In this document: positions 4,163 through 52,377 of the stretch, one piece after another
Layout: every line of letters begins with the position of its first letter
Numbering within the stretch: position 1 is the stretch's first letter
Assembly: GCA_964409005.1 (NCBI GenBank)
Contig: CAYPBR010000001.1
Span: 18,383-82,382 of the forward strand
DNA from: Candidatus Woesearchaeota archaeon
Lineage (GTDB): Archaea; Nanobdellota; Nanobdellia; Pacearchaeales; GW2011-AR1
Reading direction: 5' to 3'
DNA length: 64,000 nucleotides
Program-made: the position numbers and the translations under genes
Notes under the pieces: model-generated
Told to the model about the DNA's origin: nothing
Databases searched by the model: none
The model's input: the letters and a program-made list of their open reading frames with translations, nothing else

Positions 4163-6040
4163 TTAACTTACCTCTTCATAAGTTCCTGGCTTTGCAAGTT
4201 CAACATCTATCCAATATACAGGTAAAAACTGTTTTGGATTTTTAGATACCCACTCAATATTTCTTAATCCGCCTACACCTTTCGGAGCATAAACTGTATC
4301 ATAGTCCTGAAGAAATTCATTACCACTTTGTCTACTTATATCATAATCTTGAAATAAAGTTTTCTTTTGCCCTAATGCGTTTTTACATACAAATAATACT
4401 CCCCTCGTTCCTATTTGTCTACTAAAGCCTTTACCTACATATTGTAACGACTTTGAACTATTCGATGATCCATAAATTCCGTCACCTATCATTCTACCTA
4501 CTTCAGGTTTTGTTACTTTAAATCCGCCCCTTGCAATCTTAGCAGCGTTCTTAAACGCCGTTCCGTGATATGAGAATGTTACATTCCCTATATCTTTTTC
4601 AACTTTTTTATAATCTTTATAATAACTTGTATCATCAATTTTAAAAATGTTATGTATTTTAAATCCAAAGCTTCCATGTTCATCTTTATCAAAGGTCGAC
4701 TTCATTTTATCGTATACTTTCTTTTGCTCTTTTGACGATGCATTACTTAATGAAAATGTTTTACGCTCTTCACCTTGCTCTGATAATGCCGATAACAGTT
4801 TCTTTTTTGCCGATTCTCCTTTATATGCCTGACTTCTTTTTTCTATAAATAACTTTCTTAATTCTTCAGCATCGTCTACTCCATAAGCTTCTTTTGCATT
4901 TATCAATTTAGAATTTTTTCTCATTTTAGGAAGTAGTATCTTATTTGTATAATATGCTGTATATAGCGCTTCAAACCATTTCTTTGATTTAGGATTATCT
5001 TTTTGAGTGCTCGTAATATCTCTTTTCAATTTCTTTACTACATCTAATTTTATATTTCCAATATCACTCATTATATTTTTATTCCTTTTCATAAAATCTT
5101 TACTTTTTTTCATCGGTTCTGTCTGCACATTAAAAGCATCAATCAATTGTTTTTTTTCTACAGCCGTTATACCTTTAGCTTCTTTAATTATTTTAATATT
5201 ATCTGTATTATCATCACTCCAATAATCAAGCATATAACCTTCATCGGATATAAGCGCTGAATATCTTTTTAATACAATTGGAATCGAGTCTACTATTTCA
5301 GCTCTATCCACTTGAGGCATCATACTTACTTTAGCACTATCAAAATCTTTATAATTATCAACAGTATATCCTCTTTGTTTAGCAACCTTCTTTAAAGTCT
5401 TATTATAATATTTATCATATATTTCTTTTCTTACATTATGTATTGCATTACGTGATCTACTTACTACATTATCTAATTTCTTACTTTCTTTTCTTAACGC
5501 TCGTACATTTTCATCCTTTGCATACTGTTTCAATAATATTTTTCTATATGGTTCTATTACATCTTTCATTTCCTTCGGCATTCCTGTAAACATTTTAACG
5601 CCGTACTTCTTTTCCATTTCTATTATCTCACCTAACTTTAATCCAATTTTATTTGTTGTATACTTACTTGATGATCCCATGCTAGGATGATAAATCCACT
5701 TTATATATCCCGGCAACTTACTATAATCAATTTTAATCGTCGACGCTTTAAATATACTTGCCATTTCATCGCTTACATATTTCAGCGACCTCGTATCTTT
5801 ACATAATATTCCAGTACTATCTAATATTTGCTTCTGCTCTTTATTTATTTTCGGTACTCCCACAACTTTTTCTTTAACAGTCTTTTTTCTTTCTACTGCT
5901 GCAGCCACTCCCACATACTTCATCACTCCAGCAACTTTCTTATACTTCAGTAACCTTCCCTTTATATTATATGTTACTACTTGACCCTCAGCAATTCTTC
6001 TTCTTTTTTGTGCCTTAACAAATAACATATCCTTCCTCAA
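4163..6040 (-). CDS. lysine-rich protein with a C-terminal PARP-like ADP-ribosyltransferase catalytic domain
   Basis: C-terminus matches the PARP/tankyrase catalytic core. 'YHGTAFKNAAKIARGGF' ~ 'FHGSPFVNAIIHKGF' and 'GDGIYGSSNSSKSLQY' ~ 'GAGIYFAENSSKSNQY'. 'LFVCKNALGQ' ~ 'LLLCRVTLGK' and 'NIEWVSK' ~ 'AEYVIYR' (catalytic Glu). The H-Y-E triad is present. Confidence 0.7.
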   Translation of the reverse strand: MRKDMLFVKAQKRRRIAEGQVVTYNIKGRLLKYKKVAGVMKYVGVAAAVERKKTVKEKVVGVPKINKEQKQILDSTGILCKDTRSLKYVSDEMASIFKASTIKIDYSKLPGYIKWIYHPSMGSSSKYTTNKIGLKLGEIIEMEKKYGVKMFTGMPKEMKDVIEPYRKILLKQYAKDENVRALRKESKKLDNVVSRSRNAIHNVRKEIYDKYYNKTLKKVAKQRGYTVDNYKDFDSAKVSMMPQVDRAEIVDSIPIVLKRYSALISDEGYMLDYWSDDNTDNIKIIKEAKGITAVEKKQLIDAFNVQTEPMKKSKDFMKRNKNIMSDIGNIKLDVVKKLKRDITSTQKDNPKSKKWFEALYTAYYTNKILLPKMRKNSKLINAKEAYGVDDAEELRKLFIEKRSQAYKGESAKKKLLSALSEQGEERKTFSLSNASSKEQKKVYDKMKSTFDKDEHGSFGFKIHNIFKIDDTSYYKDYKKVEKDIGNVTFSYHGTAFKNAAKIARGGFKVTKPEVGRMIGDGIYGSSNSSKSLQYVGKGFSRQIGTRGVLFVCKNALGQKKTLFQDYDISRQSGNEFLQDYDTVYAPKGVGGLRNIEWVSKNPKQFLPVYWIDVELAKPGTYEEVS

Positions 6041-45472: not shown

Positions 45473-46007
45473 TTTGTTACCTCCGTTATTAAAATTGCAA
45501 GGGAGTCAATCGACTCCCATTTACCTATAGTCTAATTTTTAATTGATCTTTCTGTGCTCTTGCAGGATCACCGTTTAACAATCTCACAACATAATCGAAA
45601 GAACCAAGTTTCAATTCAACTATAGCTTGAGTTAAAAATAGTATAGAAATTTTGCTTCGATACCAAACTTTATCACCTACTTCATAATTCATATTGCCCT
45701 CCATTTTTAAAATTGCAAGCCAGTCAATTGACTGGCTATTATAACTAATTTGCTACTCTTTCTCCGTCTATATCACAAAGCCACCTACATCACGAAGAGT
45801 GTAATCAGTTATTTCTAATTCAACACTATCAACCAAACTACGTTCTTGATTGATATTCAAAGAATTAAGTATATAATCAAAATACTCAATTTTTTCCGAA
45901 TCTCTATTGCCGTTAAAATCGTCTCTGTGAATTGTTATAATCATCTTACTACCTCCTTAATTAGTTTATTCAACAGGAAGCTCTTTTGGAGCTTCCCATT
46001 TAACAAA

Positions 46008-46433
46008 CTACCATTCTATTCCTACCGCAAATCTTGTTCTAATGCCACTCGCAAACTTGTCATAAAATTGGCCTTCATGACTATAGGCCGGGCGGATATA
46101 GTGACGATACAAATCCACATACAAATCCTTTGTTATGTTGATTTTTGTACCGACAATATAGATATCGCGATAAGGAGAAAAGCTGAGCTTTTCACTACGC
46201 TCCACCACACTACGCTCCACCAATACACTGATGCCACCATAAAGTGTCATCCAGTGCCAAGGCACAAATTGTACATTAATCTCTGTTTCAAATAACTCTA
46301 CTTCTTCTACATATCCAAATTGTGCGTTACCATGTATCTCAGCTCCCTCTGCTTTAAAGGCTATCATCATCTCAAGAGTAAAAATGACGAGAAAGATGAG
46401 TACTACCAAGCAAATCTTTTCAAATCTTTTCAT
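46008..46433 (-). CDS. outer-membrane beta-barrel protein (Lom/Ail/OmpX-like) with a signal peptide
   Basis: N-terminal signal 'MKRFEKICLVVLIFLVIFTL'. Alternating amphipathic strands. C-terminal 'RFAVGIEW' ends on an aromatic residue, typical of OMP beta-barrels. Confidence 0.55.
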   Translation of the reverse strand: MKRFEKICLVVLIFLVIFTLEMMIAFKAEGAEIHGNAQFGYVEEVELFETEINVQFVPWHWMTLYGGISVLVERSVVERSEKLSFSPYRDIYIVGTKINITKDLYVDLYRHYIRPAYSHEGQFYDKFASGIRTRFAVGIEW

Positions 46434-46483
46434 AATGTTACCTCCTTAATAAGATTGCAAGGCCCCCAATTGGGGGCCTGTTC

Positions 46484-47386
46484 TTAAAGTCCGAATCGCT
46501 CACTGATCTGCCGGGAAAGGTCATTACGTCTTTCTTCACTAATGACATTATTGTGACTTAATGTATTAGTGAATGTATTCAGTAAATCCCATGAAGTCAT
46601 TTTCCTGGTCATCTCAAGTTCAACAGCACCTTCATTATCATTAAACTTTACAAACTTGTGATGTTCAAGATAATCCAATGCCTCATCCTGCATAAATCCC
46701 GGCACATCGTTCAAGTGCTCCTGTAATACAACAGGATTAACTTGTTGTTTTGAAAGAGCCACGATTTGCGGAAGAACCTTTCTATCAAAGTTAGCAAACT
46801 TTTCCATAAAACGTTCAACCATCTGTTGAATGTCAAGATTCTTTGAATGACGCTTTCTTTCAGAATAGAGCATTTCATTTACAGTTGCTCCATTTGTACA
46901 GATCAGTCTCAATATGTATGCACTGATCTCATATTTGATTGACCTGTCATAAGAATTCGTAATCTTAAATCCCGGTGCAATAACATCACCGACTTTAGGA
47001 TTTTCAACAGCGCATATACCAAGTTCCATTTCTTGTTTAAATCTGAACTCAGCATACATTCTCGCACCACCTCCTGACATTCTCATATTCACAGGTTCAA
47101 CTTCCGGCAATCCGTTTTTCTTGAAGGTGTCAATAACATTATAAACTGCTTCTTTGTGAGAAACAAGCTTATATTCTCTTGACACTACTCCAAGATTAAT
47201 ACCAGTCTTAGCATTATAAACGTTGTCAAAACCAGTATCATTCCCCTGTGAGTTAAACGACTCTTCCCTTTCAACTGGAAAGTTAAAAGCTTTAAGCTGT
47301 TCGGGTTTAAAAATTGTTTTAGTACTCATAGAGTACCTCCTTAAAAAGATTTTTGAATTGATATAACTTAATTCAACAGGAAACAC
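46484..47386 (-). CDS. phage/plasmid-associated protein (280-300 aa). The likely real start is 'MSTKTIFK'. It may belong to a DUF932-type family, but that is uncertain
   Basis: Noticeably higher GC than the flanking genes; no catalytic motif recognised. Confidence 0.45.
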   Translation of the reverse strand: MFPVELSYINSKIFLRRYSMSTKTIFKPEQLKAFNFPVEREESFNSQGNDTGFDNVYNAKTGINLGVVSREYKLVSHKEAVYNVIDTFKKNGLPEVEPVNMRMSGGGARMYAEFRFKQEMELGICAVENPKVGDVIAPGFKITNSYDRSIKYEISAYILRLICTNGATVNEMLYSERKRHSKNLDIQQMVERFMEKFANFDRKVLPQIVALSKQQVNPVVLQEHLNDVPGFMQDEALDYLEHHKFVKFNDNEGAVELEMTRKMTSWDLLNTFTNTLSHNNVISEERRNDLSRQISERFGL

Positions 47387-47427
47387 TCTTTCAAATGTTT
47401 CCCATTTAATTAAGTTTATAAAAGATT

Positions 47428-47787
47428 TTACTCTTCTACAAGATACTCAATTAAAACATTGTAATAAATATTGTACCATACTTCTTTTTGATTCTCGTCA
47501 ATAAAACAATCATTAATGATTTTCATTAAAGGTTCATAATCACCAAACGTTGTAAAAGTTTTCATAAGTCTATAAATCGCAACAGAATCAATTTGCGTAT
47601 CTATATACTCTTTGTAAGTTGCTTCCATATAAACGCTAGCTAAACCTCCGAAATAACCCCGAAGATATATTTCTTTCTCACGATTAGTAAATGAAAGCCA
47701 ATCTTCTTTAATAAGCTCATACGCCATTGACTGGGAAACAATTAAAGCAAATAGCACAACTAAAACTAAAATCTTTTTAATGTTCAT
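47428..47787 (-). CDS. secreted / periplasmic protein with a signal peptide (119 aa)
   Basis: 'MNIKKILVLVVLFALIVSQSMA' is a signal peptide. Confidence 0.5.
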   Translation of the reverse strand: MNIKKILVLVVLFALIVSQSMAYELIKEDWLSFTNREKEIYLRGYFGGLASVYMEATYKEYIDTQIDSVAIYRLMKTFTTFGDYEPLMKIINDCFIDENQKEVWYNIYYNVLIEYLVEE

Positions 47788-47834
47788 AATAAACCTCCTT
47801 AAAGATTTTTAATAGAGTTTTACATTTAATTAAG

Positions 47835-48056
47835 CTAAATACTATTTGTATTACGATAATTAATATAATCTCTATATCTTTCTTTTCTTCTATCACCAAC
47901 ACCAACCCACGCAACATTACTAAAACATTCTTTGATATACCATCTTAGTTCAACTCCATCCCAATTATCAGGCATCTTGCTGATTTTCTCTAAAATCTCT
48001 TTCTTCACAATTTCAATCATTCCTTCGAGAAAATTTTTTCTTTCTTTTTCATTCAT
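47835..48056 (-). CDS. hypothetical protein (73 aa)
   Basis: Minus-strand ORF. Confidence 0.4.
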   Translation of the reverse strand: MNEKERKNFLEGMIEIVKKEILEKISKMPDNWDGVELRWYIKECFSNVAWVGVGDRRKERYRDYINYRNTNSI

Positions 48057-48114
48057 TTTACTACCTCCTTATAAGATTACGAAGGGAGTGTAAATTAAAT
48101 ACTCCCTTACTGAA

Positions 48115-48294
48115 TTAATTTTCTTTCCGTACAATTTGAAAGCCTGCGCTTTTAAGAGCAACTCTGATTGAAGTAGCTATATCATATGGTTTATCTAATT
48201 TCATATTCTTAGCTGATACGACTCCTAAAATCATCGCATTTTCAATCATTGCATTCTTAACTACTTTATCTGTTTTTTTATCTGAAGCTGTCAT
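48115..48294 (-). CDS. small hypothetical protein (59 aa; MTASDKKTDKVVKNAMIENAMILGVVSAKNMKLDKPYDIATSIRVALKSAGFQIVRKEN)
   Basis: Hand-translated; sits between two hairpin elements with an RBS 'GGAGGTAGCAAAATG'. Confidence 0.35.
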   Translation of the reverse strand: MTASDKKTDKVVKNAMIENAMILGVVSAKNMKLDKPYDIATSIRVALKSAGFQIVRKEN

Positions 48295-48354
48295 TTTGCT
48301 ACCTCCTTAAATTTAATTCAGCAAGGGAGTCTTTTTCAAAACTCCTATGCTCAA

Positions 48355-48660
48355 TCAAATAGTCTGTGGTTTCATAGCTTCTATATCAGTCAAACACAAT
48401 AATTTTACTTCTTTTTCAGTAAGGTAACTACAATTCCACAAACCATTTTTAATAGGTAATTTAAATTCATCAGGTCTTGTTTTCCATGTCTTTAAATTAC
48501 CATTCACCCTCCATCTTTGAGGAGTTCCATCTGCATTACGATTTATAACATGGTATAATATATCGCCATGTTTTAAGTTGTTTACTTCTTTTCTTGTTAT
48601 CATTTTAATACCTCCTTGTAAAATTACAAGGGAGTCGATTGACTCCCTGTTAAAGATCAT
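48355..48660 (-). CDS. hypothetical protein (101 aa)
   Basis: Minus-strand ORF. Confidence 0.4.
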   Translation of the reverse strand: MIFNRESIDSLVILQGGIKMITRKEVNNLKHGDILYHVINRNADGTPQRWRVNGNLKTWKTRPDEFKLPIKNGLWNCSYLTEKEVKLLCLTDIEAMKPQTI

Positions 48661-48809
48661 TTAATAAATATCGCAACATGATCTTTATTTTCTCTAATAA
48701 TTATCTTTTCCAAATGCGAGCAACAGTTACCTGTCCACGTATCAACTTTAATATTACATACAGGACAAATAATATTTCTTGATTCAATTACTACTTTAAT
48801 CTTTTTCAT
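48657..48809 (-). CDS. small zinc-ribbon protein (50 aa; ...CPVCNIKVDTWTGNCCSH...)
   Basis: Hand-translated; below the ORF-track cutoff. Confidence 0.35.
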   Translation of the reverse strand: MKKIKVVIESRNIICPVCNIKVDTWTGNCCSHLEKIIIRENKDHVAIFIK

Positions 48810-48860
48810 TTTGTTACTCCCTTATAAGATTGCAAGGGAGTCGATTGACTCCCTGTGTAA

Positions 48861-49073
48861 TTAATGTTTTTGAACTGTTATATAAAATTGTTCATCTGCT
48901 TTTGTTGTAATTACAATTCCTACATCATTAGTTAAAACACCTTGTTCTTCAAAACTGTTAAAAGTTCTAATCTCATCGACAATACTATCGTACATATCAT
49001 TGTCGCCTACTAATGTAATTCCTTCACAAAGTAAATCAATCACATCATTTACATCCATTTTTTTCTCCTTCAC
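48861..49073 (-). CDS. hypothetical protein (70 aa)
   Basis: Minus-strand ORF. Confidence 0.4.
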   Translation of the reverse strand: MKEKKMDVNDVIDLLCEGITLVGDNDMYDSIVDEIRTFNSFEEQGVLTNDVGIVITTKADEQFYITVQKH

Positions 49074-49110
49074 TTCTAAGATTACAAGGGAGCCGATTGA
49101 CTCCCTGTTA

Positions 49111-49353
49111 TTATATCGCTAAAGCCTTTGCAAGATATTTAAAGAAGTGTAAACAATTACCATTTTTAAAATCAATCTTAACTAAAATATTTTTGATTTG
49201 TTTTTTTCTTTCTATGCAAGTATTTTTAATAGTATCTAAAACTACTTGCAATGGTATCATGTTTTCACCGCTCTCACCTTCTACAAAAAAGAAATCTTCA
49301 ACGTCATAACCTTTTTCTTCAACTAATGTATCTAACCATTCAGCAAATTTCAT
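49111..49353 (-). CDS. hypothetical protein (80 aa)
   Basis: Minus-strand ORF. Confidence 0.4.
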   Translation of the reverse strand: MKFAEWLDTLVEEKGYDVEDFFFVEGESGENMIPLQVVLDTIKNTCIERKKQIKNILVKIDFKNGNCLHFFKYLAKALAI

Positions 49354-49433
49354 TTTATTTCTCCTTCATTTAATTTACTGCTTTGGCACTTCCAGAGCAT
49401 GATCTCTGATAAAGACTTCAAAGTGCCATAAAT

Positions 49434-49661
49434 CTAATTCTTGCGGTAAATATTTATGCCGACATTGAAGTCAGCAACCTTTACGTTACCGCGAGTTGAA
49501 GCAAGAACCATTGATTTTCCTGATCCACTCAACGTTCCCTTTCCGCCCAAGTTAATTTCCATTTTGAGCTTCTTTGTTTTTGTATCATACTCGTACTTAA
49601 TCTCATCTGTTAATTTCTCCATCTTACTACCTCCGCATTTAATTTTACTTTTTTCTCTCAT
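49434..49661 (-). CDS. hypothetical protein (75 aa)
   Basis: Preceded by promoter-like motif copy P1. Confidence 0.45.
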   Translation of the reverse strand: MREKSKIKCGGSKMEKLTDEIKYEYDTKTKKLKMEINLGGKGTLSGSGKSMVLASTRGNVKVADFNVGINIYRKN

Positions 49662-49692
49662 TAAGTATATTACGTAGTTACGTAACTTATGA
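49655..49692 (-). promoter_or_regulatory. phage-specific promoter-like motif, copy P1
   Basis: Minus-strand TCATAAGTTACGTAACTACGTAATATACTTAATGAGAG. Confidence 0.45.
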
Positions 49693-49734
49693 TTAATTCA
49701 GCAAGGGAGCCTCTTACGAAGCTCCTATGCTCAA

Positions 49735-49980
49735 TTAAAGATGCTCAAGGTATCTTGTTTTTCCACAATACTCACATGACAATCCTTTATCTGATATTCC
49801 ACTACACCAATGACATTTCATTTTCTGCGGTCTTATATCATCAATAACTTTTTCAACCATGTTCTGCATTATTCGCATACCACTTTTAGATATGCTTTTA
49901 ATTGGAGTAGTATTGAATTGATCTTTAAAAAGATAATCAGTTTCAACTTCAACTGTCATATTCTCAATTGCCTTGATCAT
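49735..49980 (-). CDS. hypothetical protein with a CxxC...CxxC motif (81 aa)
   Basis: 'CHWCSG...CEYCGK'. Confidence 0.4.
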   Translation of the reverse strand: MIKAIENMTVEVETDYLFKDQFNTTPIKSISKSGMRIMQNMVEKVIDDIRPQKMKCHWCSGISDKGLSCEYCGKTRYLEHL

Positions 49981-50135
49981 GTCAGCCTACTGCCAATTAA
50001 CATGTCCAAATTTTGATATGTTGTGGATGTAAATACTTGATGCATTTGCTTTGATTTTAATCTTCATTTTGTTACCTCCGTCTTAGGATTGCGTCGGATC
50101 AAAGGAAAAGCGTTTTCACCTTGATCCGGTTAAAA

Positions 50136-50468
50136 TTAAATAGTTGGTAGTCCAAGATAGTTATCGTCGCTCTCAAACCACTTTTTGAGTTTGGCGCACA
50201 TCTTTACAGATGCTTCATTTCTTAAATCGTACCAACCATCTTTGTCCAGTTCAGCATACTTCTTTGCAACTTCAACTATTGTTCTCCAAAAGCTCTGTTG
50301 TAAAGTTCTATGCTGATGAGTGATTGCATCGAAGAAATATTTAACGTGTTTTTCATAAGAAAAGTTATTAATCTCATTAAATAGCTGATCGACAATTTTT
50401 CTCATTGATTCACGTTCAGTTCTTTCTCTCATTGCATCTTCCATTTTTTCTTCTTCTGCTGGACTCAT
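50136..50468 (-). CDS. hypothetical protein (110 aa)
   Basis: Minus-strand ORF. Confidence 0.4.
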   Translation of the reverse strand: MSPAEEEKMEDAMRERTERESMRKIVDQLFNEINNFSYEKHVKYFFDAITHQHRTLQQSFWRTIVEVAKKYAELDKDGWYDLRNEASVKMCAKLKKWFESDDNYLGLPTI

Positions 50469-50534
50469 TTTACTACCTCCTTAAAGGATTTTTTATTTCT
50501 AAGATTGCAAGGGAGTCAATTGACTCCCTTTTGT

Positions 50535-50738
50535 TTAGCAAGATGTATTCAACTGTTCTTTAGTAGCGTAAAAAATTGCACAACTAACTTCAACTTCAGC
50601 TTTTGTCAATGAGCTAATAGTTGACAAGTTTGCTCTTGAGTTGGGTATACTTTCTTTTACTTTAATAAGGTCTTCCCTTGCTCTAAGTAATCTATCTTGA
50701 ACTGTCATTATGCTACCTCCTAAAGTTTTATATTTCAT
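50535..50738 (-). CDS. hypothetical protein (67 aa)
   Basis: Preceded by the terminator plus promoter-like motif copy P2. Confidence 0.45.
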   Translation of the reverse strand: MKYKTLGGSIMTVQDRLLRAREDLIKVKESIPNSRANLSTISSLTKAEVEVSCAIFYATKEQLNTSC

Positions 50739-50741
50739 TCT

Positions 50742-50779
50742 CCCTCACTAAATATATTACGTAACGCCGTAACTTATGA
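50742..50779 (-). promoter_or_regulatory. phage-specific promoter-like motif, copy P2
   Basis: Minus-strand TCATAAGTTACGGCGTTACGTAATATATTTAGTGAGGG. Confidence 0.45.
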
Positions 50780-50817
50780 TAAAGTACATTTCTATATATA
50801 TATGCCTTAACTTTTAG

Positions 50818-50855: not shown

Positions 50856-51110
50856 TTAATATGTAAATTTTGCATCTTTTGTCATTGACCACAACAAGGC
50901 ATCAGCATTAATTATTCCAACTCTGTTGTCATTAAGATATATACTAATCTCTTTTCCTACCAAGGACTTTGGTGTCCTATCGTTTATAAGATTAATAACA
51001 TCTTTTGTGATCTTTAACTCGCTCCTTTCCCTTATCTTATAGGTAAAGTTAAGTGCGTTTAAAGCTATACCTGTTTTTTCGGCATCGCCTTCACTCATTG
51101 TTCTCACCAC
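50856..51110 (-). CDS. hypothetical protein (84 aa)
   Basis: Minus-strand ORF. Confidence 0.4.
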   Translation of the reverse strand: MVRTMSEGDAEKTGIALNALNFTYKIRERSELKITKDVINLINDRTPKSLVGKEISIYLNDNRVGIINADALLWSMTKDAKFTY

Positions 51111-51134
51111 CTTTCATTATAAGATTGCTTTTAA

Positions 51135-51180
51135 AAAAGAAGGAAGGGAAGGCCTTTTCCGGAAAAGGCCTTTTATCTTT
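51135..51180 (-). terminator. bidirectional intrinsic terminator (GGCCTTTTCCGGAAAAGGCC with T-runs on both sides)
   Basis: Perfect 8-bp GC-rich stem. TTTTATCTTT follows on the plus strand; TTCCCTTCCTTCTTTTTT follows on the minus strand. Confidence 0.6.
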
Positions 51181-51440
51181 ATAGTGGGTTTCAGTTAGTT
51201 GATATTTTCAATCCACTAGGGATTAATTATAAACCTCCAAACCTATCGGAAGTACTCTCATAAGAGCCTCGGTCTACGGATAAAACCGCTTCCTTCCCGA
51301 GCTGTCACCCGGACTAACCTACATCAGTCTTTCCTGATAGCCAGATTATCTCGAAAACTTAGTGTCAAGTCCCTTCCTTCAGTCGTACGACTTCTTATGT
51401 TACTGCTCCGATACCTTAGCGGATTCAGAATAACGAAGCA
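51181..51440 (-). ncRNA. candidate structured non-coding RNA, about 260 nt, GC-enriched, bounded by two terminators
   Basis: No ORF on either strand. Markedly higher GC than the surroundings. Multiple nested inverted repeats (TACTGCT...AGCAGTA; AGTCGTACGACT; CTTCC...GGAAG). Confidence 0.3.
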
Positions 51441-51443
51441 GTA

Positions 51444-51477
51444 GCATAAAAAGCGGAATATATTTCAACTCCGCTTC
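51444..51477 (-). terminator. rho-independent terminator (GCGGAGTTGAAATATATTCCGC followed by TTTTTAT on the minus strand)
   Basis: Stem-loop plus U-run directly after the stop of the 51487..51912 gene. Confidence 0.6.
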
Positions 51478-51486
51478 TCACGACAG

Positions 51487-51912
51487 TCATTTTACCAGGC
51501 TTATTTTCTTCTTTCCAGTTTTCTTTTTGGCAGTAACCGTGATCGTTTTCTTCCGTGTACCATTGGTTGCGCCAGAAGGAATGTCTCTCATGTCCAATTT
51601 ACCGAGTTCAACTGAAACAAGACCGGCATTCGTTTTGCGGGGAATATCAGGATTCATACTCTCAAGCTTGTCAAGAATCTGTTTTCTTGTCTTCCCAGCA
51701 CTTGCCATCTTGCGAATGACTCCAGTCTTTCCGCCTTTTCCATACTGATTATCAACAGTATGGACAGCAACTTTCTTTTCCGACGTTGTCTTCTTTACAA
51801 CGGGTTTTTTTGAAGTTGCTTTCTTTGTTGCTACTTTCTTTTTTACTACTGTCTTTGCTTTTGCCATTACTGGCCTCCTTAGAGTTTTTTTTATGAGGCT
51901 TTTTTTCCTCAC
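51487..51912 (-). CDS. histone H1-like lysine-rich DNA-binding protein (paralogous core with 30181..30762)
   Basis: 'AKAKTVVKKKVATKKATSKKPVVKK...'. Central 'GGKTGVIRKMASAGKTRKQILDKLESM' aligns with 'GGKSYSQVAREVLTKTDGNRKKATAKLKEL'. Confidence 0.55.
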   Translation of the reverse strand: MRKKSLIKKTLRRPVMAKAKTVVKKKVATKKATSKKPVVKKTTSEKKVAVHTVDNQYGKGGKTGVIRKMASAGKTRKQILDKLESMNPDIPRKTNAGLVSVELGKLDMRDIPSGATNGTRKKTITVTAKKKTGKKKISLVK

Positions 51913-51943
51913 TTATTTTATTATGTAGTGACGTAACTTATGA
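51907..51943 (-). promoter_or_regulatory. phage-specific promoter-like motif, copy P3
   Basis: Minus-strand TCATAAGTTACGTCACTACATAATAAAATAAGTGAGG. Lies 30-45 nt upstream of the ATG of 51487..51912. Confidence 0.45.
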
Positions 51944-51964
51944 CTTTTCACTACATAATAAAAT

Positions 51965-52307: not shown

Positions 52308-52332
52308 AATACACTCCCTAAATAGTTTATTC

Positions 52333-52370
52333 CCCTCACTTATATTATTGTGTAACGCCGTAACTTATGA
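52333..52370 (-). promoter_or_regulatory. phage-specific promoter-like motif, copy P4
   Basis: Minus-strand TCATAAGTTACGGCGTTACACAATAATATAAGTGAGGG, directly after the terminator and before the RBS. Confidence 0.45.
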
Positions 52371-52377
52371 CTTTAAT

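Follow-up and report, generated by a model that had tools for sequence, protein, structure and literature searches.

A multi-helix RNA module inserted between two small genes of a deep-sea sediment phage, a candidate for an orphan structured RNA

On the minus strand of the window, i.e. the whole 64-kb stretch of contig CAYPBR010000001.1 that was analyzed here and that is part of an uncultured phage genome from deep-sea sediment, the genes for a 126-amino acid (aa) and an 80-aa protein are separated by a long gap. Does this gap encode a structured RNA and, if so, of which kind? An earlier note, made from the letters alone, had outlined positions 51181-51440 as a G+C-enriched, highly structured segment without open reading frames (ORF), bounded by two terminators. 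As shown below, the gap contains a module of about 260 nucleotides (nt) whose sequence points to a multi-helix RNA fold on the minus strand. The fold is kept in four phage variants, and the module is a lineage-specific insertion.

As previously claimed, the gap lacks coding capacity, in that 51111-51486 contains no conserved ORF and no ORF of at least 25 aa exists inside 51185-51486 on either strand. A small ORF or a degraded gene does not fit either, since six-frame translation of the segment in the window and in two relatives meets stops in every frame and reveals no shared peptide. The G+C content is indeed raised, 0.435 for 51200-51499 versus 0.30-0.35 on the side of the small genes, but the adjoining gene for the 126-aa protein is equally rich (0.42-0.43), so that the enrichment is not confined to the non-coding stretch. 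As assessed by an inverted-repeat scan and by reading of the sequence, the three inverted repeats pointed out in the earlier note are all real. TACTGCT/AGCAGTA belongs to a hairpin with 23-nt arms (51391-51453), CTTCC/GGAAG corresponds to a perfect 11-bp inverted repeat whose arms (51139-51149 and 51370-51380) are 220 nt apart, and the palindrome AGTCGTACGACT occupies 51381-51392. In addition, 51149-51172 forms a hairpin that is perfectly palindromic (12+12). Together, the inverted repeats of this region are far beyond chance for a stretch of 400 nt. The folding energy of 51140-51490 corresponds to z = -5.2 for the minus strand and z = -3.5 for the plus strand, values to which the terminators, a leader hairpin, and the closing helix contribute most. 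When the interior (195 nt) was folded by itself, z was -1.6 (-52 kcal/mol) on the minus strand and 0.0 (-37 kcal/mol) on the plus strand. Considering this modest interior value, the description of the segment as highly structured leans on comparative evidence more than on energy.

An alignment with homologous phages, which the earlier note had proposed, provides this evidence. Four distinct variants of the module, i.e. those of the window, the L003 type, the L006 type, and L024 (L numbers designate related loci), were aligned using MAFFT and compared with our own structure model. Pairing is possible in 98% of 248 base-pair cells, and eight pairs distributed over five helices have changed on both sides (one in P0, one in Pa, three in Pc, two in Pd, and one in Pt). 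When the model was slid along the alignment in six controls, which keep the relatedness of the sequences, we counted 0-1 both-sided pairs and 36-58% pairing. The observed covariation score was reached by 0 of 500 shuffles. Among the most instructive cases is Pc, which spans ∼110 nt and contains three compensatory pairs, as exemplified by UCGGG/CCCGA in L003 versus CCAGA/UCUGG in L024. The outer stem of Pd comes in three types (CUCGG/CCGAG, UUCGG/CCGAA, and UCCGG/CCGGA), which amounts to two compensatory pairs. For Pe and Pf, neither sequence nor length is shared among the window, L003, and L024, but two adjacent hairpins still form in each. More generally, loop lengths change among the variants and stems are kept. 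The core of the module (51270-51350) is 88-95% identical between variants, compared with 72-80% for the 80-aa gene and ∼78-82% for the loci overall. These findings point to a multi-helix RNA fold that is real and reasonably well supported.

Could the same observations be produced by a neutral spacer, i.e. two terminators and chance structure, with a conservation that merely reflects the closeness of four genomes? The low interior z-score would be expected in this case, only four variants are available, and related sequences can beat shuffles without any structure. However, the slid controls, in which relatedness is preserved, have 0-1 compensatory pairs as opposed to eight in the proposed structure, conservation of the core exceeds that of the adjoining coding DNA, and two hairpins have been rebuilt from unrelated sequence. 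We therefore regard a segment devoid of function as unlikely.

The alignment also indicates on which strand the RNA is encoded. A G-U pair occurs in at least one variant at 11 pairs (25 cells), and an RNA transcribed from the plus strand would pair at only 88% of the cells. Because the G-U cells fit the minus strand only, because the interior folds more strongly on that strand, and because all genes are encoded there (the minus strand holds every gene-like ORF of at least 100 aa in the window), the RNA is assigned to the minus strand. The same evidence bears on the idea that the segment is a site in duplex DNA, e.g. an operator cluster or a replication, packaging, or recombination site, in which proteins would read the palindromes. 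The perfect palindromes AGTCGTACGACT and AAGGCCTTTTCCGGAAAAGGCCTT could serve this purpose, and the neighboring 126-aa protein is basic, with a small helical core in its predicted model that could bind nucleic acid. Moreover, the symmetric G-C to A-U change of P0 in L003 and L006 preserves the dyad symmetry of the DNA, so that an RNA hairpin and a DNA site bound by a dimer fit this element equally. On the other hand, helices that are long range, imperfect, and contain G-U pairs make sense only in a single-stranded RNA from the minus strand, hairpins kept with wholly different sequences would be intolerable in a sequence-specific site, and the segment has neither iterons nor an AT-rich unwinding region. 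A role at the DNA level is thus very unlikely.

The architecture of the module is summarized in Table 1. An 11-bp closing helix, P1, surrounds at least seven helices. Toward the 3' end, a 22-nt GC hairpin precedes the second strand of P1, and the module finishes with a U6 tract. P1 is invariant over the four variants, except for one A-U to G-U change. The loop of Pa has a different length in every variant, and Pa is shifted in L024. In Pb, one-sided changes (C-G to U-G and G-U to A-U) retain pairing. Pc, which has one C-A mismatch in the copy of the window, is the helix that closes a four-way junction with Pd, Pe, and Pf. The inner hairpin of Pd is invariant, whereas the counterpart of Pf is a 44-nt hairpin in L003 and L006, and a 26-nt hairpin in L024.

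Table 1. Features of the RNA module and of its surroundings. Positions are those of the window, except for the uORF (upstream ORF).
Feature	Position	Strand	Description
RNA module, ∼260 nt	51133..51392	-	Starts with the 5' palindrome and ends with the U tract; stretch absent from the orthologous L008, L010, and L018 sites
P0, palindrome AGUCGUACGACU	51381..51392	-	4-bp stem, GUAC loop; immediately 5' of P1
P1, 5' strand GAAGGAAGGGA	51370..51380	-	Perfect 11-bp repeat with 51139-51149
Pa, hairpin CUUGA...UCGAG	51350..51369	-	One compensatory pair, one G-U change
Pb, bipartite hairpin	51313..51345	-	UCUGGCU-AUCAG-GAAAGA-CUGAU-GUA-GGUUAGU; loop GAAAGA
Pc, 5' strand CCGGGUGA	51305..51312	-	Long-range helix; pairs with 51216-51222
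Pc, 3' strand UCCCUAG	51216..51222	-	Pairs with 51305-51312
Pd	51268..51301	-	Outer stem CUCGG/CCGAG, purine-rich internal loop RAAGRAA, inner hairpin GCGG-UUUUAU-CCGU
Pe, small variable hairpin	51254..51267	-	GCUCU-UAUG-AGAGU in the window
Pf, larger variable hairpin	51233..51253	-	ACUUCCGA-UAGGU-UUGGAGGU in the window; flagged by the terminator scan
3' domain	51174..51218	-	Conserved; hairpin UGGAUUGA...UCAACUA or helix UAGUGGAUU/AACCCACUA; invariant word CUAACUGAA
Pt, terminal GC-rich hairpin AGGCCUUUUCCGGAAAAGGCCU	51150..51171	-	22 nt, nested within P1; one compensatory pair, two G-U changes
P1, 3' strand UCCCUUCCUUC	51139..51149	-	Perfect repeat with 51370-51380
U6 tract	51133..51138	-	Immediately after P1; relatives have U7-U8
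Intrinsic terminator of the upstream 126-aa gene	51444..51479	-	GCGGAGU-loop-AUUCCGC, then UUUUUAU; a normal terminator as read by eye
Older leader hairpin, outside the insert	51400..51445	-	Stem CUACUGCUUCG/CGGAGCAGUAA, conserved loop UUAUUCUGAAUCCGCUAAGGUAU
Upstream gene, 126-aa protein	51487..51867	-	Lysine-rich tails, three-helix core
Downstream gene, 80-aa protein	50856..51098	-	No Pfam or PHROG match
Promoter-like motif copies (repeat family D2)	49649-49696, 50736-50783, 51900-51947, 52327-52374	-	
Repeated intergenic unit (repeat family D1)	Seven copies in 45482-50535, e.g. 50492-50535, 49069-49112, 48817-48860	-	
uORF	L003 2962-3012; L016; L006 3060-3109		Overlaps the ribosome-binding site or the start codon of the 80-aa gene

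Is this module an ancestral part of the locus? A large protein collection contained 19 relatives of the 126-aa protein and two of the 80-aa protein, whereas scans of IMG/VR guided by the 126-aa, 80-aa, and 601-aa neighbors found no relatives. Loci that contain the module (L003/4/5/16, L006/7, and L024) have a gap of 432-436 nt between the genes and encode a homologue of the 126-aa protein that is 82-89% identical. In module-free loci, the gap is 118 nt (L008/9), 187 nt (L010/11), 82 nt (L018), or 85 nt (L012), and L017, which ends 166 nt beyond the 126-aa gene, has an L010-type leader in place of the module. The gene downstream of the gap is an orthologue of the 80-aa gene in L008 (62% identity) and in L010 (44%). 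At the L008, L010, and L017 sites, the upstream gene still has its terminator, and a leader hairpin and the ribosome-binding site are also left, whereas L012 and L018 retain only a terminator-like hairpin and the ribosome-binding site, orthology of the downstream gene being established for L008 and L010 only. The comparison of these loci shows that the module is a lineage-specific insertion of ∼260-270 nt, absent from orthologous loci of more distant relatives, a property that had escaped the earlier note. The conservation in related phages, to which that note had tied its proposal, holds for the fold in four variants but not for the more distant relatives, which lack the module.

The boundaries of the element were redrawn accordingly. 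The span 51181-51440, taken before as one element, merges the module with the leader hairpin (Table 1) and leaves the closing helix and the terminal hairpin outside. The leader hairpin also occurs in L008, L010, and L017, all of which lack the module, and it predates the insert; located upstream of the 80-aa gene, it is probably a regulatory RNA or an operator of its own. It is found at 1158-1206 in L008, at ∼3808-3925 in L010, at 1840-2006 in L017, and at ∼300-375 in L024. Its stems covary fully among lineages (CUACUGCUUCG/CGGAGCAGUAA, UUACUUCUCUC/GAGAGAAGUAA, and UUGCUCCUUUC/GAAAGGAGCAA), and two words in its loop, UAUUCUGAAUYYGCUARG and GAUAUU, are unchanged across lineages. In L010, L017, and L024, the loop contains an additional hairpin flanked by two copies of CUGAAKMUGCUARG, and in L003 and L006 the loop has been lost. 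On the other side of the leader hairpin, the rho-independent terminator described earlier at 51444-51477 on the minus strand is present, with slightly wider limits (51444-51479), and is kept in all relatives. It was missed by the terminator scanner, probably owing to its long loop and a G-U pair.

Presence or absence at an orthologous site is also what selfish or relic mobile DNA would produce. Such DNA could resemble a miniature inverted-repeat transposable element whose terminal inverted repeats are 11 bp long, or be what is left of a larger cassette, and its hairpins would be kept by mobility or by recent common descent rather than by an RNA function of use to the phage. The perfect 11-bp repeat GAAGGAAGGGA/TCCCTTCCTTC near both ends, the 12-bp palindrome at one edge, a G+C content unlike the phage background, and HNH genes that come and go nearby are compatible with this origin. 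Nevertheless, the module exists as one copy per genome. No second copy was found in the 64 kb of the window, nor in 106 kb comprising the window and related loci, using a covariance model of the 86-nt core. Three scans of IMG/VR with exact and degenerate DNA patterns produced no match, and a pattern scan of a metagenome collection (JGI) returned only two contigs of the same phage lineage, which were already known. Five matches among 185,579 species genomes were dismissed as chance, because they come from high-G+C genomes and show no further nhmmer similarity. Thus, with the patterns tried, no copy was found in these collections outside the phage lineage. Having a single copy and no dispersed matches, the module is not a multi-copy repeat and, within the data searched, is restricted to one phage clade. 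There is no clear target-site duplication, because only a trivial AAG repeat flanks the insert, and no transposase is encoded among the ORFs scanned with Pfam. The 12-nt palindrome lies outside the 11-bp repeat, on the 5' side of the insert. Importantly, internal helices that covary and G-U-compatible substitutions argue for selection at the RNA level. Mobile DNA kept for its own sake is therefore a rather unlikely explanation.

Does the module belong to a known RNA class? The Infernal scan suggested in the earlier note was run on the whole window against Rfam 15, whose 4227 models include riboswitches, 6S, signal recognition particle (SRP), RNase P, transfer-messenger RNA (tmRNA), group I/II introns, ribozymes, GOLLD/ROOL/HEARO, and phage RNAs, and gave 0 matches at gathering thresholds. 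At E ≤ 10, the window, L003, and L006 yielded hairpin-like noise only, e.g. microRNA models with 14-25 bits versus thresholds of 45-100. In agreement with the previous reading by eye, ARAGORN identified 0 genes for tRNA or tmRNA in the window. The module does not behave as a group I intron, since each flanking ORF is an intact reading frame by itself, whether the insert is present or absent, and there is no Intron_gpI match at E ≤ 10. BLAST of the region and its surrounding 12 kb against 50,697 phage records found no match. There is no conserved hydrophobic peptide in any frame of three variants that would suggest a type I toxin-antitoxin system and, as regards retrons, the neighbors have no Pfam or PHROG match and no reverse transcriptase was found among the 20 largest ORFs scanned. 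The module is thus a candidate for an orphan structured RNA, which matches no described family.

Several resemblances noticed by eye were discarded. A word similar to SRP domain IV (GGAAGGAAGC) reads GGAAGAAAGC in L003 and GAAAGAAAGC in L024, and a word similar to CR-I of RNase P is AGGAAAG...UCCGGG; neither is accompanied by a covariance-model match, and both were attributed to chance. A kink-turn in the loop of Pd was rejected because the window has a G where a critical A is required. A GAAA-receptor-like word in the leader hairpin and a T-loop-like 7-nt loop were resemblances by eye and were dropped. Finally, a putative internal sigma-70 promoter (TTGACA-N14-TAATCT) has a spacer of 14, 15, or 18 nt among variants and lies within hairpin Pa.

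What could such an RNA do? The explanation that we favor, although only tentatively, is that the module specifies a stable noncoding RNA (ncRNA), which is released at its own terminator and in this way also attenuates transcription into the 80-aa gene. The module would be transcribed as part of the cluster of small early genes, starting at the promoter-like motif at 51900-51947 or at a weak promoter located in the leader hairpin. Pt and then P1 would form directly before the U6 tract, and most transcripts would end there. The released RNA, compact and with both ends paired, would be stable and act in trans, probably as a scaffold or a decoy for a protein partner. The same termination would limit read-through, and the remaining read-through would supply the 80-aa gene. 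The comparison of loci shows that the module was acquired as a single cassette, between a leader hairpin and a ribosome-binding site; the phage that acquired it was the common ancestor of those represented by the window, L003, L006, and L024. In line with a free RNA, P1 and Pt are invariant or only compatibly changed, and the U tract directly follows P1. A structured RNA on the minus strand is thus supported. As to the two possibilities raised in the earlier note, i.e. an independently transcribed structured ncRNA or a long cis-regulatory leader, no conserved promoter for independent transcription was found in front of the module. The strong bidirectional terminator placed by the same note at 51151-51170 stands in part. 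A terminator is indeed called there by the scan on the plus strand, but on the minus strand CCCUUCCUUC intervenes between the hairpin and U6. Whereas terminators are defined by a U tract within 0-2 nt of the hairpin, Pt sits 10 nt from U6, and only the long-range helix P1 abuts the U tract.

Because of its location, the module might instead be a cis-acting sensing leader, i.e. the 5' untranslated region (UTR) of the 80-aa gene, acting as a riboswitch or as an attenuator that responds to a protein or to tRNA, in which binding of a ligand, or of a phage or host protein, to the multi-helix body would decide whether P1 and Pt form before the U tract and hence how far the 80-aa gene is transcribed. 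It lies immediately upstream of the 80-aa gene, whose start codon is 35 nt past the U tract, and no recognizable promoter separates the two, so that the gene would be reached by read-through. The size of the module, its multi-way junction, its conserved core, and its variable peripheral hairpins resemble large riboswitch aptamers. In addition, GGAAGGG in the 5' strand of P1 could, as read by eye, alternatively pair with the 5' arm of Pt, CCUUUUCC, and an 8-nt purine word in the loop of Pd is complementary to the 3' strand of P1 in the window. However, this last complementarity decays to 7/8 in L003 and 6/8 in L024, by eye, which leaves no conserved anti-terminator. A terminator hairpin nested in the closing helix is not the usual layout of an expression platform and, since Pt is nested in P1, the classical arrangement of an anti-terminator competing with a 3' terminator is not available. 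No riboswitch or leader family of Rfam matches even at E ≤ 10, the product of the 80-aa gene has no metabolic link, and the orthologous genes of relatives manage without the module. Between the module and the 80-aa gene, some relatives have a short uORF with its own Shine-Dalgarno sequence, encoding MKKILQQGGENNE in L003 and L016, and MKKILQ in L006; the window and L024 have none. Taking into account the nested terminator, the lack of a conserved anti-terminator, the genes of relatives without the module, and the uORF in L003 and L006, we place a free ncRNA above a sensing leader, which is possible but less probable. The preference is slight, because the absence of a promoter between the module and the 80-aa gene makes the module, by position, also a leader.

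Several points weigh against a released ncRNA or against the fold on which it depends. No conserved promoter was identified before the module, neither by the sigma-70 scan nor among the repeated promoter-like motifs of the phage, which are absent there, and no promoter of its own was seen for the 80-aa gene, to which the module is by position a 5' leader. With a U tract 10 nt from Pt, termination would need a helix closed over ∼240 nt, which is unusual. P1 shows almost no variation, so that the case for it lies in its perfection, and the folding energy of the interior is by itself not significant (z = -1.6). The two folds of the 3' domain are mutually exclusive and cannot be separated by the data, the helix of the hairpin being invariant and hence uninformative. 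Four variants from one sediment system afford little power, an inherited change is counted several times, and the covariation score is not a statistic of R-scape grade. Furthermore, the structure was derived from the same sequences on which it was scored, which inflates the paired fraction.

The flanking proteins offer few clues. The AlphaFold model of the 126-aa protein (pLDDT, the predicted local distance difference test, of 70) has a three-helix core and disordered lysine-rich tails. These tails are histone-H1-like, the core contains invariant RKQILDKL and NAGLVS motifs, and the gene shares the raised G+C content of the RNA module. The protein belongs to no Pfam or PHROG family, and has no sequence match in the PDB and no significant Foldseek match. 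Because genomes that lack the RNA encode it as well, there is no support for a protein dedicated to this RNA.

The wider setting is the phage genome itself. Logan contig SRR8799001_1588 is identical to the window across 10.4 kb, and the longest recorded contig with proteins of the window is 96 kb. As assessed with Pfam, genes in the window encode a gpA-type large terminase, baseplate J, a tail-tube initiator, DnaB, primase, a DnaE-type polymerase, RecA, SbcCD-like proteins, a DNA methylase, and a protein with a PARP catalytic domain. The terminase shares ∼23% identity with its counterparts from myoviruses of Bacillus, Staphylococcus, Listeria, and Enterococcus, and the phage is distantly related to Herelleviridae-like myoviruses. 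The PARP catalytic domain (Pfam E = 1.3e-16) is found in a 625-aa protein encoded at 4163-6040 on the minus strand; it is unusual in a phage and might be an ADP-ribosyltransferase directed against the host. Related contigs come from the SDBS/SDBT assemblies and PRJNA259156, accessions used in papers for deep-sea sediment metagenomes. We take these samples to be from Loki's Castle. Free-standing HNH_3 endonuclease genes exist in relatives (L006 1679-2215 and L010 218-649) and are missing from the window, which shows that mobile genes turn over in the neighborhood. L012, an 88-kb related contig of a distant phage from the same sediments, displays at 1-605, beside replication genes, a weak tubulin-family match that may be a TubZ/PhuZ-like protein.

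The module is placed among small genes (∼44.5-52.5 kb) that are interspersed with repeated hairpin and promoter-like motifs. The promoter- or operator-like motif, TCATAAGTTACG-NN-GTTACGTAATAT followed by AGTGAGG, has four copies, each directly upstream of a small gene, and the one at 51900-51947 is enclosed in an inverted repeat with 18-bp arms. No copy is found before the 80-aa gene or before the RNA module. A second repeated unit, which is intergenic, consists of a palindromic hairpin GGGAGTCAATTGACTCCC, then TTGCAATCTTA, then the ribosome-binding site of the next small gene. This unit may serve as a terminator, as a processing site, or as a signal for translation. One of its words, GCAATCTTATAA, recurs after the RNA module at ∼51118-51129.

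How does the module compare with known systems? Surveys by the Breaker laboratory of G+C-rich intergenic regions (GC-IGR/DIMPL) have identified orphan ncRNA candidates in long, G+C-rich intergenic regions of AT-rich genomes (PMC6429828, PMC8632094, PMC8723152, PMC11109978). The logic of detection, an ORF-free stretch of raised G+C content, is the same here, as are a multi-helix fold, covariation, a conserved core, and variable hairpin tips, and the survey candidates likewise had no known function when discovered. In contrast, the module is no member of the survey motifs in Rfam 15, resides in a cluster of early phage genes, and is present or absent among close relatives. The ends of 6S, SRP, Y, and RNase P RNAs also meet in a long helix, and their length of 200-400 nt is similar, but their covariance models give no match to the module at E ≤ 10. 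With riboswitch and attenuator leaders, the module shares a 5' UTR position, a closing P1, a multi-way junction, and a hairpin and U tract before a ribosome-binding site; it differs from them by a terminator hairpin inside P1, a U tract after P1, no conserved anti-terminator, no aptamer match, and a non-metabolic downstream gene.

Complex structured RNAs of ∼260 nt with conserved cores are rare and, once studied further, have often turned out to be riboswitches, ribozymes, or ribonucleoprotein scaffolds. GOLLD, ROOL, and HEARO are much longer than the module, at roughly 300 to 800 nt. Like it, they are complex many-helix RNAs, often found on phages or prophages, without an assigned biochemical role (for the structures of GOLLD and ROOL, see PMC12286853), but the module has no sequence or structure match to them. 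It is conceivable, although doubtful, that the module represents a new class of large phage RNAs, of which it would be the first member, acquired as a portable cassette, either a ligand- or protein-sensing attenuator that uses its closing helix as terminator stem, or a stable RNA, possibly catalytic or a decoy, involved in host takeover. With four variants from one habitat, its standing is that of a candidate rather than a discovery. A putative terminator nested inside the closing helix is an unusual arrangement in a module that behaves as a portable cassette and, if the RNA is functional, would provide a compact system for studying how a long-range helix drives termination.

Runs of small genes with repeated motifs such as the one that surrounds the module resemble the host-takeover modules of SPO1-like phages. 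In Herelleviridae-like viruses, these likewise comprise numerous small early genes accompanied by promoter-like and hairpin motifs that recur, and we are aware of no report of a comparable RNA gene in them. A functional module would add an RNA player to the host-takeover repertoire of phages.

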